This document shows positions 36,472 to 40,764 of a DNA stretch of 64,000 nucleotides, one piece after another. Each line of letters begins with the position of its first letter. Position 1 is the stretch's first letter. Location: NCBI GenBank assembly GCA_963816905.1, contig CAWFMQ010000009.1:20142-84141 (forward strand), given 5' to 3'. The notes beneath the pieces are model-generated. The model worked only from the letters and a program-made list of their open reading frames with translations. It had not been told where the DNA came from and made no database searches. The stretch comes from an uncultured Chloroflexia bacterium (GTDB lineage Bacteria > Chloroflexota > Limnocylindria > Limnocylindrales > CSP1-4). Position numbers and translations under genes: made by a program.

Positions 36472-36735
36472 GCCGGGGGCCGGGACGGATGCCGTCACGT
36501 GGCCCGATCGTACGAGCGGAGTGGTCGAGTGGGTCATAGCCCGGAGCGGTCCGGGCGTCGCAGAGTGGGTGAGTCGGGTCTCCATGCCCGATCGCCGAAC
36601 CACAGGAGAGCCGACAGCGCCGATGCCCACCGGTGCCCGATCGTGTCCAATGGAAGACGCGAGCGCCGCGGGGTCATGCCACTGCGCGCATGACGCGCCA
36701 CGTGCCATCCGACCGGCGTGGCACGTGGACGTCGC

Positions 36736-39558
36736 ATGACGCCGCTGGAAACCCTGCGAACCGCCCCCGATTGGGCGGCCCTGCGCTCGCGCATGGGTCG
36801 TTCGATGGGCCTCGGTGGGCCACGGGCGATCTGGATCTTCAGCCTGGTGCTGCTGCTGTCCGCCGTCCTGATCGATGTGCGACTGGTCATCCCGATGGGT
36901 CCGCTGCGCGCGACCGACGTGCCCTGGCCGCTGGTCGCCGTCGCGTTCGGGGTCGCCGAGATCTTCGTCATCGAGTTCACGCTCCGGAACAGCACCCACT
37001 CGTTCACCTTCAGCGAACTGCCGCTCGTGGTGGGACTGTTCCTGCTCGCGCCGCAGGACCTGATCCTCGCCCAGCTCGTCGGAGCAGGCGCCGCGCTCCT
37101 GATCCAGGGACCGCGGACGCCGGTGAAGCTGACGTTCAACGTCGCCAACTTCATGTTCGGCACCAGCCTGGCCTGCGTGGTCTTCCGGCTCATCGTCTCG
37201 CCGACGGAACTGGCGCCGACGGCCGCACAACCCGGGCAGCTCGAGTTCACGGGTTGGCTGGCCGGCTTTGCAGCGGCGTTCGTCTCCGACACGTCGGCGA
37301 CCCTGCTGGTACTGACCGCGATCGCGCTCAGCGAGGGCCGCCCGGCCCGAATCCCGCGCCTCATCGGCCTCGGGACGCTGTATACGCTCGCAGACACGAG
37401 CCTCGCCCTCGTGAGCGTGATGGTCCTGGTGCAGAACAAGCTCTCGTCGTGGCTGCTGCTCGTCCTGGCCGGCGTGTTCTTCTTCGGGTACCGCGCCTAC
37501 GGGTCCCTCCGCCAGCGCAATGAGAGTCTCGACACGCTCCAGCGGTCAACGCGCTCCATCCAGCTGGTGCTCCAGCTCGAGCGCGTCACCGAGAGCCTGC
37601 TCGAGAACGCCCGTGACCTGTTCGGCGCCGAACTCGTCGAGCTGTGGCTCTTTCCAACCGAGGACGAGCCTGGCCGGGGCGGGCGGCTGACCGACGAGGG
37701 ACTCACCTGGTACGAGTTGCCGGTGACCCCCGGTGCGCCCGCGTGGCGTCGCGTGATCGAGCAGCCCGGGTGCATCCGGCTGTCCCCGGACGACGCCGAT
37801 GTGCAGCTGGGGCCGACCTCCGGTGCCGGGAACCGCGAAACGATGCTCGCGCCCATCCGCAACGAAGCCGCAACCGCCGGCATCCTGGTGATCGCCGGCC
37901 GGGCCGTCGGCTCCGGTACGTGGAAACAGGACCAGCTGACGCTCCTCGAGACGCTCGCCAACCACGCGGGCGTCTCGATCCAGAACGGCCGCCTCGTCGA
38001 GCAGCTCCGGCGCCAGGCCCAGCGCCACGAGCACGAGGCCACCCACGATCCGCTCACCGGCCTCGCGAACCGGGCGCTGTTCCGCCGTCGGCTTTCCGAG
38101 GCCGTCCAGGAAGCCGCCCGAACCGGGGACAGTCTTGCGGTGATGATCATGGATCTCGACCGTTTCAAGGAGGTCAACGACACCCTCGGCCATCACAGCG
38201 GGGACGAGCTGCTGCAGCACATCGCCGGCCGGCTCCGCCGCACGGTGGGCGAACGCGGCCTCATCTCCCGCCTGTCCGGCGACGAGTTCGCGGTGCTGCT
38301 GGAGCACGTGCGAGGACCGCAGGCCCCGACAGCACTTGCCACGGCGATGGCCGTCGGGCTGCAGGCACCGTTCGCGATCCAGGAGATGCACGTGGACGTG
38401 GAGGCAAGCATCGGGATCGCGCTGTTCCCGGAACATGGCGGCGACGCGGATACGCTGCTCCAGCGTGCCGACGTCGCGATGTACATCGCCAAGACGTCGC
38501 ATACGGGGTACGAGGTGTACCGGCCGGACCGTGACCAGTACAGTCCGGCCCGCCTTGCCCTGACGGGCGAGCTTCGCTCGGCAATCGACTCGGGCAGTCT
38601 GACCGTGCTCTACCAGCCCCAGCTCGATGCTCGCACCGGGACCATCCGGGGTGCCGAGGCCCTCGTTCGGTGGGTGCATCCGCGCCACGGGTTGATCGCA
38701 GCCGGCGACTTCGTGCCGCTGGCCGAGCACACGGGCCTCATCCGCCCGCTGACGCTCTTTGTCCTCGGTGAGTCCCTCGCCCGATGCCGGGCCTGGCGCG
38801 ATGCGGGCCACGACATCGTCATGTCGGTCAACCTGTCGGCGCGCAACCTGCTGGATGTCACGCTCGCCGACGAGATTTCCCGCCAGCTGGCCGAGCACCA
38901 GCTTCCCGCCTCGGCACTGACGCTCGAGATCACGGAGACCTCCCTCATGTCCGATCCGCACCGGTCGGAGGCCATCCTGGACCGGTTGCGGTCACTCGGC
39001 GTGGGCATCTCGATCGACGACTTCGGGACGGGCTACGCCTCGCTGTCCTACCTGAAGCGCTTCCCGGTCACCGAGCTCAAGATCGACCAGGCCTTCGTCC
39101 GCGGCATCGACGACGACCCCGACGACCTGCGGATCGTCCGCTCGACGATCGAGCTGGCGCACGGGCTTCGCCTGCGGGTGGTGGCCGAAGGCTCCGAAAC
39201 GGCGCGGGTCACGGCCCGCCTGACGCAACTGGGCTGCGACGTGATCCAGGGCTATGCCGTCGGGCGGCCGATGCCGGCGGAGCTGTTCAACGAGCGCCTG
39301 GCGCGCGAGCCGCGCGGCGGGCCGGCTGCCGAGACGCTGTCGAGGCTGGTGCTTCCGGATCGCCGTCGGAGGGTCCGCCGACGGCAGGGCGTACGGCACC
39401 CCGGATCGGGCCGCCGAAGCACCGACCACCTCCCGTCGCCGGTCGCGGGGGTCGCGCCGGCGACCGACGGCCTGCCGTATCCGACCGCGGAGCTGTCGCT
39501 CCTCGCCGCCGAGCTGGCGCCGAAACGGCAACCGGTGCCGCCGCGCATTCTCAGCTGA
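36736..39558 (+). CDS. Multi-TM sensor-GAF-GGDEF-EAL c-di-GMP enzyme
   Basis: About 7 N-terminal TMs, GAF-like region, HDPLTGLANR, DLDRFKEVNDTLGH, SGDEF, EAL, DDFGTGY, ELKID, AEG, QGY. Confidence 0.95.
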   Translation: MTPLETLRTAPDWAALRSRMGRSMGLGGPRAIWIFSLVLLLSAVLIDVRLVIPMGPLRATDVPWPLVAVAFGVAEIFVIEFTLRNSTHSFTFSELPLVVGLFLLAPQDLILAQLVGAGAALLIQGPRTPVKLTFNVANFMFGTSLACVVFRLIVSPTELAPTAAQPGQLEFTGWLAGFAAAFVSDTSATLLVLTAIALSEGRPARIPRLIGLGTLYTLADTSLALVSVMVLVQNKLSSWLLLVLAGVFFFGYRAYGSLRQRNESLDTLQRSTRSIQLVLQLERVTESLLENARDLFGAELVELWLFPTEDEPGRGGRLTDEGLTWYELPVTPGAPAWRRVIEQPGCIRLSPDDADVQLGPTSGAGNRETMLAPIRNEAATAGILVIAGRAVGSGTWKQDQLTLLETLANHAGVSIQNGRLVEQLRRQAQRHEHEATHDPLTGLANRALFRRRLSEAVQEAARTGDSLAVMIMDLDRFKEVNDTLGHHSGDELLQHIAGRLRRTVGERGLISRLSGDEFAVLLEHVRGPQAPTALATAMAVGLQAPFAIQEMHVDVEASIGIALFPEHGGDADTLLQRADVAMYIAKTSHTGYEVYRPDRDQYSPARLALTGELRSAIDSGSLTVLYQPQLDARTGTIRGAEALVRWVHPRHGLIAAGDFVPLAEHTGLIRPLTLFVLGESLARCRAWRDAGHDIVMSVNLSARNLLDVTLADEISRQLAEHQLPASALTLEITETSLMSDPHRSEAILDRLRSLGVGISIDDFGTGYASLSYLKRFPVTELKIDQAFVRGIDDDPDDLRIVRSTIELAHGLRLRVVAEGSETARVTARLTQLGCDVIQGYAVGRPMPAELFNERLAREPRGGPAAETLSRLVLPDRRRRVRRRQGVRHPGSGRRSTDHLPSPVAGVAPATDGLPYPTAELSLLAAELAPKRQPVPPRILS

Positions 39559-39644
39559 GGGAAACGAGGGGGGGTCGCCAGAGGGGCCTGCCGCCGAATC
39601 CACGATCGGGCGGAAACCATCGGACGTTTGAGGGCCACGAACAA

Positions 39645-39722
39645 GGCCGCCGTCACCGGCGGCCGCGACAGCCGAATTCACATGTGGGCGAACGGTGATC
39701 GGGCCGCCGTCACCGGCGGCCC
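39645..39722. terminator. Two identical 20-bp GC hairpins between convergent units
   Basis: GGCCGCCGTCACCGGCGGCC at 39645-39664 and 39702-39721. Confidence 0.6.
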
Positions 39723-39744: not shown

Positions 39745-39849
39745 TCACCACTGCCAGCGGCGGCCAGCTTCCAGCACGTACGTCGAGCCTGCCAGGGCGG
39801 CAAGCGTGAGCAGTATGCGCAGGAGCTGCGCCCTGATTACCGGGCGCAT
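39745..39849 (-). CDS. Small peptide 2 (34 aa) MRPVIRAQLLRILLTLAALAGSTYVLEAGRRWQW
   Basis: Hand translation. ATG lies 4 nt after the peptide 1 stop. Basic-hydrophobic signal-like pattern ending AG-x-RW. Confidence 0.75.
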   Translation of the reverse strand: MRPVIRAQLLRILLTLAALAGSTYVLEAGRRWQW

Positions 39850-39853
39850 GGCT

Positions 39854-39943
39854 TCAGTACCAGCGCATGCCGGCGGCAAGCGCCAGCGCCATTGTGAGAA
39901 GGGCCACGACGGGAGGAAGCAGGCGCCTCAGGTTCGCCTTCAT
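39854..39943 (-). CDS. Small peptide 1 (29 aa) MKANLRRLLPPVVALLTMALALAAGMRWY
   Basis: GAGG RBS and ATG directly downstream of the riboswitch. Signal-like pattern ending AG-x-RW. Confidence 0.8.
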   Translation of the reverse strand: MKANLRRLLPPVVALLTMALALAAGMRWY

Positions 39944-39979
39944 TACCGAAGTACCTCGTGCAGAGGACGTGCGACGTCG

Positions 39980-40055
39980 TTCCCGGCAGCCGGGCGGTCT
40001 CGTGGAGATCCCTGGCTTTGCGTCCCCGTCTCGCGGCGGGTTTGCCCTGAGCAGG
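39980..40055 (-). ncRNA. c-di-GMP-I (GEMM) riboswitch
   Basis: Minus strand reads CAGGGCAAACCCGCC-GCGA-GACGGGGACGCAAAGCC...GGCTGCCGG. This matches the GGCAAACC / GNRA / GGACGCAAAGC class I signature. Confidence 0.9.
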
Positions 40056-40218: not shown

Positions 40219-40764
40219 TCAGGCGGGGGCGCCCTCGGGACCGGGATCCGAGCGCATGGCGATCACCACCGCCACGAATGCGCCGACACCGATCAGGACA
40301 TCGCCGACGCTGAAGACATTGGCGAACGGCAGCCCCGCCGGCAGGGCAAAGATGTCGGTCAACGGCGCCAGGACGGGGTTGGCGACCGAGACACTGTTCG
40401 AGTACGTGCCCTTGATCGCCAGTCCCGCCGCGACGAGCGCCTCGTGGTTGGCCGGCATGTATCCGCCGTTCGCGACGATGGCGGCAAGGTTGAGCAGACC
40501 ACCCAGGAGCACCACCGGGAACCCGGCCACGCGGACGTTCCGGAGGACGAACAGGGCCACCGCGATCGTCGAGATCACGTAGACAGGTGGTCCCGCCGTG
40601 CCCACCTGGTCGCCGAGCGGCGTCGAGAACAGGAGGAACTGGACAAGGAAGCCGGTCGCCGCCAACCACACCCACGCGAGGTGCAGATCGGCCAGCCGCT
40701 CGAGGCGTCCCGACGTCGCCAGCCCTCCGACGATACCGGCGAGCACGGCATACAGGATGAACAT
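40219..40764 (-). CDS. DUF5317-like integral membrane protein (putative LspA-like aspartyl peptidase)
   Basis: LNLAAIVANGGYMP, LTDIF, VFSVGDVLI. Family assignment is from memory, not a database search. Confidence 0.8.
   Translation of the reverse strand: MFILYAVLAGIVGGLATSGRLERLADLHLAWVWLAATGFLVQFLLFSTPLGDQVGTAGPPVYVISTIAVALFVLRNVRVAGFPVVLLGGLLNLAAIVANGGYMPANHEALVAAGLAIKGTYSNSVSVANPVLAPLTDIFALPAGLPFANVFSVGDVLIGVGAFVAVVIAMRSDPGPEGAPA

Follow-up and report, generated by a model that had tools for sequence, protein, structure and literature searches.

What do two very short open reading frames encode when they lie almost end to end and both finish on an A-G-x-R-W motif? The pair studied here is on the minus strand of a 64-kb window, the whole stretch of DNA that was analysed, from a metagenome-assembled genome (59% complete, 4.0 Mb, about 70% G+C). 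An earlier note on this DNA had taken both frames for signal-peptide-like precursors from which C-terminal peptides are cut and released; neither the riboswitch in front of the pair nor the hairpins behind it were part of its description. Our analysis shifts the question from secretion to signalling. Conserved membrane micro-proteins encoded directly behind a c-di-GMP riboswitch point to a small-protein output of second-messenger signalling, and that, rather than a source of secreted peptides, is how we read them. On balance, the best reading of the locus is a pair of paralogous single-pass membrane micro-proteins gated by a c-di-GMP riboswitch.

The micro-ORF pair and its relatives

Table 1. 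Features of the micro-ORF locus and its neighbours, in window coordinates.
Feature	Position	Strand	Basis or remark
c-di-GMP-I (GEMM-I clan) riboswitch aptamer	39981..40055	-	Rfam RF03167 and RF01051
Linker/expression platform	39944..39980	-	Sequence and MFE fold; holds the Shine-Dalgarno sequence GAGG (39957-39954)
Micro-ORF 1 (ORF1), 29 aa, predicted single-helix membrane micro-protein; translation MKANLRRLLPPVVALLTMALALAAGMRWY, then stop	39854..39943	-	Divergent KANLARFTWA...GAGxRW type; pN/pS 0.37 over codons 10-28
Micro-ORF 2 (ORF2), 34 aa, predicted single-helix membrane micro-protein; translation MRPVIRAQLLRILLTLAALAGSTYVLEAGRRWQW, then stop	39745..39849	-	...SSALVLEAGxRW type; pN/pS 0.37; AF2 helix
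GC-rich hairpin GGGCCGCCGGUGACGGCGGCCC, first copy, 22 nt past the ORF2 stop	39701..39722	-	Sequence
Second hairpin copy (39645-39664) and tail UUGUUCGU, intrinsic-terminator-like	39635..39664	-	Terminator scan
DUF5317 integral membrane protein	40219..40764	-	Pfam PF17248, 92 bits
Membrane GAF-GGDEF-EAL c-di-GMP enzyme, convergent with the micro-ORFs	36718..39558	+	Pfam and synteny

Both micro-ORFs are exactly where the earlier note had placed them, 4 nt apart (Table 1). The pattern AG.RW followed by at most three residues and a stop occurs twice in the six-frame translation of the window, as ORF1 and as ORF2; windows simulated with a first-order Markov model average 0.24 occurrences and reach 2 at most. 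Behind ORF2 the hairpin GCCGCCGGTGACGGCGGCC is duplicated, with the copies 57 nt apart and a U-rich tail on the second only; in relatives, too, ORF2 is followed by a GC hairpin and a run of U. As the aptamer lies 37 nt upstream of ORF1 and the terminator-like hairpins follow ORF2, the unit appears to comprise riboswitch, ORF1, ORF2 and terminator. We think it fairly probable that the locus is a small stand-alone transcription unit of this kind, in which a c-di-GMP-I riboswitch and a terminator flank two micro-genes coupled in translation, and that their products have a partner in the membrane. The other neighbours in the window are an inositol monophosphatase gene, on the same strand and upstream of the DUF5317 gene, and an MFS transporter gene.

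Three other genomes of the genus have the same aptamer, Shine-Dalgarno sequence, ORF1, gap of a few nucleotides, ORF2 and GC hairpin, one of the contigs ending after ORF1. The nucleotides of these copies have diverged while the peptides are conserved. Within the same family (Ca. Limnocylindrales, Chloroflexota) a profile built on ORF2 has matches in 188 of 401 genomes, spread over 35 of 49 genera, often with 2-5 copies per genome. Among GTDB species representatives tblastn confirmed 93 ORF2 loci, mostly in soil MAGs labelled 'Candidatus Limnocylindrales', Chloroflexota or Chloroflexia, and among 1.84 billion representative proteins the matches fall into 134 clusters (50% identity), nearly always with the match at the extreme C-terminus. 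In a phylum-wide sample of 401 genomes, matches were found only in this family and in one sister-family genome of the same class. The micro-proteins are confined to the class Limnocylindria (Chloroflexota) and occur in about half of the family's genomes.

Database proteins of 85-203 aa with the ORF2 motif at their end were considered as domain fusions and rejected: they are upstream read-through artefacts, several of them including translated riboswitch. In P0018, P0088, P0125, P0022 and P0055 the micro-genes have been extended upstream through the riboswitch, giving spurious 'proteins' of 100-200 aa that contain, for example, QGKPVVRRGRKARDL, which is translated aptamer. A different irregularity is seen in P0075, a close relative of the window's ORF2 (MRPVVRAQLLRMLFVLAAIGSTSYVLEAGRRWM...) that continues for 44 residues past the motif, through stop-codon loss or a sequencing error.

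The substitution patterns are those of coding sequence. The 27-codon core of ORF2 has a pN/pS of 0.37, with 53% of differences at third positions (86 unique nucleotide versions), against 1.4 and 2.3 in the alternative frames, and codons 10-28 of ORF1 give the same 0.37, with 55% third-position differences (43 unique sequences), values to be read with the bias towards motif conservation that comes from gathering the sequences by protein similarity. The stop of ORF1 is coupled to the start of ORF2, mostly across gaps of -16 to +11 nt. Shine-Dalgarno sites precede both ORFs, which evolve as coding sequence under purifying selection, and the conservation in relatives that the earlier note had proposed to look for is there, in the spread of ORF2 and in the low ratios of both frames.

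These patterns bear on the idea that the stretch is untranslated and serves as the riboswitch's expression platform or as a c-di-GMP-controlled small RNA. Such a role would fit a riboswitch with no long gene behind it, and also the RNA-level constraint on the first 26 nt of the first cistron, where there is a hairpin, compensatory change and lowered synonymous divergence. However, the codon-position pattern and the low pN/pS appear only in the proposed frames, the Shine-Dalgarno sites and the stop-start coupling are conserved, and the amino-acid motifs survive many synonymous changes across the 86 unique sequences. We regard an untranslated stretch as extremely improbable. Very probably, then, the micro-ORFs are real genes and the cargo of the riboswitch. 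Scans of the peptides against NCBIfam gave zero matches at E up to 10, and against Pfam only a chance-level match to SoxE_N (E 0.16).

Peptide anatomy and the case for cleavage

The ORF2 consensus is MKxxxKAQAFRVLLALxALASSALVLEAGxRWx, in which R11, V25, A28, G29, R31 and W32 are invariant, and E27 invariant or nearly so, across the 28-33 aligned sequences. That of ORF1 is VKANLARFTWALxLLASMALT[ILV]GAG[MIL]RW, and 41 of 42 unique ORF1 sequences have GAG-x-R-W; the window's own ORF1 diverges from it, with LAAG in place of GAG and RRLLPP in place of ARFTWA. The earlier note's suggestion of selection on A-G-x-R-W agrees well with these invariant positions. Its companion statement, that the sequences differ except at this motif, is correct for the two paralogues set against each other and wrong for the orthologues of either, each of which is conserved along its whole length. 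Conservation spans the entire helix rather than the motif alone and is strongest in the hydrophobic segment. Between Gly and Arg the residue varies (Q/R/H/K/L in ORF2, M/I/L/V/Y in ORF1), as does the sequence of the tail past Trp, which has 0-2 residues in ORF2 and 0-10 in ORF1. Eight of 84 ORF2 and five of 42 ORF1 sequences stop at the Trp itself, and one ORF1 (genome G016) stops earlier, at GAGTR.

The peptides share a layout: behind a basic N-terminus come 15-19 uncharged residues with many small-xxx-small spacings, then one residue that is acidic or small, and then Arg-Trp. Given the alignment, AF2 models ORF2 as one helix (residues 2-32, pLDDT 85). A basic N-terminus, a helix and interfacial anchoring by Arg and Trp are expected of a bitopic micro-protein, not of a cleavable signal peptide. 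We infer that ORF1 and ORF2 are single-pass membrane helices of about 30 residues; for insertion and topology this draws on composition and a single AF2 helix, and the charge-free stretch of ORF2 has only about 15 residues. The basic N-terminus would be inside the cell and the invariant (E/G)-A-G-x-R-W at the outer membrane interface, while faces of small residues (GAxxSS, SxxxTxGxG) would allow the helices to pack.

The two-gene arrangement has variants. In some loci (L065, L098 and P0012, for example) a soluble linker joins the N-terminal motif of ORF1 in frame to the ORF2 helix, giving about 63-66 aa; at L086 and L112 ORF1 is a soluble peptide of 20-30 aa; and at L074 the motif MKTNLA directly heads ORF2. 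The database protein P0028 is also an in-frame ORF1-ORF2 fusion, which could be an assembly error.

The earlier note had likened L-x-A-G to a lipobox and supposed that cleavage after the Gly releases MRWY and RRWQW. Peptides of the form x-R-W-x released in this way would act as extracellular signals, and the basic N-region followed by a hydrophobic region, the small residues at -3 and -1 of ORF1 (GAG) and the invariance of x-R-W are all in keeping with such a precursor. The likeness to a lipobox breaks down at the +1 Cys, which is absent from that position in all 42 ORF1 and 84 ORF2 unique sequences, the window's two ORFs having no Cys at all, so the peptides cannot be substrates of Lgt and LspA. 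A Sec-type cut fares little better. Position -3 is Glu in 83 of 84 ORF2 sequences, a residue disfavoured there by signal peptidase I, and what follows the Gly is typically 3-5 residues, up to 13 in a few ORF1 sequences, with nothing conserved beyond x-R-W and in some cases nothing beyond the Trp. A hydrophobic segment this highly conserved runs counter to expectation for a signal peptide. Taken against Sec, lipoprotein and Tat signal peptides together, the micro-proteins have the basic N-region and the hydrophobic stretch, but they differ in that conserved hydrophobic region and the Glu of ORF2, and have no mature domain, lipobox Cys or twin-arginine consensus. A peptidase, an exporter and a receptor kinase were not found in the conserved neighbourhood, and its DUF5317 protein is unlike any solved peptidase. 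Release of signalling peptides by cleavage therefore seems very unlikely.

Short peptides with an invariant C-terminal Arg-Trp motif might also be RiPP precursors whose x-R-W core is modified by a tailoring enzyme, and some radical-SAM RiPP classes do have an Arg-Trp motif at the C-terminus. We give this hardly any credence. The 'leader' would be a membrane-like helix, and the conserved neighbourhoods showed no radical SAM enzyme, cyclase, protease or ABC exporter: at the DUF5317 loci the genes are GGDEF-EAL and DUF5317, to which the window adds the inositol monophosphatase and the MFS transporter, and a second recurrent site has DinB-like and proline dehydrogenase-like genes.

The riboswitch and the initiation region

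In an Rfam scan the predicted aptamer scores 63.4 bits against RF03167 (gathering threshold 59, E 1.5e-13) and 56 bits against the canonical RF01051 (gathering threshold 35), passing both thresholds for the c-di-GMP-I riboswitches of clan CL00126. The main text of the presumed source paper of the RF03167 motif is silent on cargo. The aptamer thus fits the c-di-GMP-I (GEMM-I) class defined by RF01051 and RF03167; the cargo here is two micro-ORFs, and in most relatives the coding start itself lies within a conserved hairpin.

The Shine-Dalgarno sequence GAGG in the linker is 10 nt 5' of the ORF1 ATG and can pair with CCUC (39966-39963). No terminator was found between the aptamer and ORF1 in the window locus, which suggests that control is probably translational. 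Every relative inspected has GGAG or GAGG 6-10 nt 5' of the ORF1 start. In many of them, judged by eye, a short hairpin encloses this site, and the 5' arm of the hairpin varies in step with the site (GACUC...GAGUC, CCUUUC...GAAGG, CCUC...GAGG).

In most relatives the first cistron opens with a hairpin of 26 nt (GUGAAGGCGAACCUGGCGCGCUUCAC) in which the start codon is buried. Of its pair cells 85-88% hold a standard pair (85% over 26 unique versions), and sliding the partners lowers this to 30-58%. There is covariation in the closing pair, GUG starts going with ...CAC (Thr9) and AUG starts with ...CAU (Met/Ile9): 20 versions have GC, five AU and one neither, a modest covariation among sequences that are related to each other. 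Four of the AU cases are genuine; the fifth is the ORF1 of the window, whose hairpin is otherwise unpaired. Synonymous divergence is 0.22 over codons 2-9 and 0.51 over the rest of ORF1, and it is because of the hairpin that KANLARFT stays constant even where the remainder of the first cistron differs. The window's ORF1 has, instead of the canonical hairpin, an AGGCG/CGCCU stem directly after the ATG.

Partition-function folding leaves the start codon unpaired with a median probability of 0.26 in the free ensemble, and of 0.06 when the aptamer folds by itself. Folding therefore leans towards repression of micro-ORF translation by bound c-di-GMP, as a weak hint. In the mechanism that we propose, c-di-GMP would control translation of the micro-ORFs through a structured initiation region made up of the Shine-Dalgarno hairpin and, in most relatives, the start-codon hairpin. 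Minimum-free-energy folds had suggested a long-range 'anti-P1' helix, joining the 5' strand of the aptamer (GUCCAGG) to ORF1 codons 9-11 (CCUGGGC), which was dropped: it is paired in 72% of cases, with zero compensatory changes. The linkers of the relatives align too poorly to give a consensus structure of the expression platform.

The source genome has two further c-di-GMP-I aptamers (L001, G000:C17; L003, G000:C14), each 5' of a gene for an S8 subtilisin-like secreted protease. Secreted proteases are a typical kind of c-di-GMP-I riboswitch cargo. The same pairing of aptamer and S8 protease is seen in sister families of the class. A second, different family of micro-ORFs, of 34-35 aa, begins about 5-15 nt past 75-nt c-di-GMP-I aptamers in related genera of the same bacterial family (L042-L049; for example MEVQGSTRVRVAVRAVLNLGLVVALVLATAANFHG). 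Units in which a riboswitch precedes a micro-protein gene thus recur, with more than one family of peptides.

Candidate partners and known analogues

A riboswitch lies 100-220 nt upstream of ORF2 in 74 of 106 loci (by regular expression and Rfam). In 54 of the 106 a DUF5317 gene is directly upstream on the same strand, and it is usually preceded by a full-length homologue of the membrane GGDEF-EAL protein of the window. The convergent position of that gene downstream of the micro-ORFs in the window is a local rearrangement. About a third of the family members have no riboswitch and are located elsewhere, flanked by a DinB-like and a proline dehydrogenase-like gene. This second recurrent site, with ORF2-type genes that do or do not have a riboswitch, is found after a DinB-like gene (about 167 aa), convergent with a proline dehydrogenase-like gene and near a YetF/DUF421-like membrane gene (L132, L142, L096, L100 and L161; gene identities assigned by eye).

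No paper mentioning DUF5317 was found in the literature, and Pfam found nothing in the N-terminal membrane domain of the GGDEF-EAL protein. The AF2 model of the window's DUF5317 protein is confident (pLDDT 88, pTM 0.83), and the invariant residues include N123-S124, D137, P142, P146, N149 and G154-D155, in a non-helical stretch. Foldseek matched the model to no PDB fold (best E 6.5), nor did a profile search find a match among PDB sequences. A DUF5317 peptidase, perhaps LspA-like, that processes the peptides was accordingly rejected: without a PDB neighbour by fold or by sequence, such a role is unsupported.

Within the genus all 49 genomes have DUF5317 and only about four have the cassette, so the peptides are accessory, and not obligate partners of DUF5317. 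The second DUF5317 copy of the source genome (L191, G000:C6:96000-99800) directly follows an HD_5 (HD-GYP-type) gene, which strengthens the link between DUF5317 and c-di-GMP turnover. This second copy is part of a single open frame of 720 aa with an MFS-like region, and a comparable long-frame copy (about 640-840 aa) is present in most members of the genus. At L120 and L122 an additional DUF5317 gene is found directly downstream of the micro-ORF pair, besides the one upstream.

In the reading that we favour, both paralogues would act together in the membrane on the syntenic DUF5317 protein, the membrane GGDEF-EAL enzyme or both, whether as partners or as modulators, and c-di-GMP would thereby acquire an arm of feedback or feed-forward control. 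That the peptides act on one or both of these proteins is a tentative proposal from synteny only, and we would put its probability somewhat below even. It is also conceivable, if rather doubtful, that the multi-pass GAF-GGDEF-EAL enzyme, DUF5317 (which is also found beside EAL and HD-GYP phosphodiesterases) or both have the AG-x-RW micro-proteins as their dedicated membrane subunits or ligands. c-di-GMP would then set the amount of peptide through the riboswitch, and the peptides would switch the enzyme that makes and breaks c-di-GMP. If true, this would be a feedback loop from riboswitch to micro-protein to enzyme, of a kind not known for any second messenger.

Peptides of about 30 aa, hydrophobic with charged ends, could also act on the membrane by themselves, in the manner of type I toxins, holins or pore formers, with c-di-GMP gating a tightly repressed translation and the peptides depolarising or remodelling the membrane, for instance to bring about dormancy or lysis in biofilms. 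In favour of this, the initiation region is heavily structured, with Shine-Dalgarno sequence and start codon in hairpins; the family is multi-copy and includes riboswitch-independent paralogues, and no enzymatic partner is required. The conserved neighbourhood of c-di-GMP enzymes and DUF5317 nevertheless suggests a specific partner, and the strictly invariant E-A-G-x-R-W, together with the faces of small residues, is more in line with specific contacts to protein than with generic membrane damage. No antitoxin partner or antisense RNA came to light in passing. We consider autonomous membrane activity unlikely, and return to gated membrane micro-proteins with a partner.

The closest published analogue is the CD1980.2/CD2309 family of C. 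difficile, which, going by its published description, is unrelated in sequence. Its members are membrane-associated proteins of 58 aa behind class I c-di-GMP riboswitches, multi-copy and in some paralogues without a riboswitch; c-di-GMP represses them by premature transcription termination, and they have a role in sporulation (PMC13724677). They are predicted to have a four-helix arrangement with a C-terminal hydrophobic helix, and the paper states that homologues are lacking outside C. difficile (PMC13724677). These were the first riboswitch-controlled small membrane proteins to be shown experimentally, in 2026 and in one Firmicute species.

Common to the C. difficile family and the Limnocylindria micro-proteins is that both are lineage-restricted, multi-copy, unannotated small proteins of the membrane (predicted, in our case), that both are the sole cargo of c-di-GMP-I riboswitches, and that both have some riboswitch-free paralogues. 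The likeness does not extend to size and architecture, as the Limnocylindria peptides have 29-34 aa and one predicted helix against 58 aa and four helices. Regulation differs as well, being by premature transcription termination in C. difficile and probably translational here. Unlike in C. difficile, two coupled paralogues are found together, in a conserved GGDEF-EAL/DUF5317 neighbourhood, and a counterpart of the sporulation role cannot be inferred for the Limnocylindria locus.

Small membrane proteins that modulate membrane sensors or enzymes are familiar from MgrB and SafA, which act on PhoQ, and from AcrZ, which acts on AcrB. The micro-proteins are like these in size, in the single helix and in regulated synthesis; feedback on a membrane signalling protein is, here, a proposal. 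They are unlike them in their unrelated sequence, in a partner suggested by synteny, in two paralogous peptides being made together and in the riboswitch input.

Of practical note, many predicted members in the searched protein catalogue bear spurious N-terminal extensions, some of which read through the riboswitch. For the biology of the group, the linkage to GGDEF-EAL and DUF5317 genes provides a testable hypothesis for the function of DUF5317 and for the input of the enzyme's membrane domain. The micro-protein family is widespread, in 35 of the 49 genera sampled, and has no Pfam or NCBIfam match. With it, the design seen in C. difficile, a small membrane protein controlled by a riboswitch, appears in an unrelated, uncultured soil phylum and with an unrelated protein family, which suggests that micro-proteins may be a general, overlooked output of c-di-GMP signalling.
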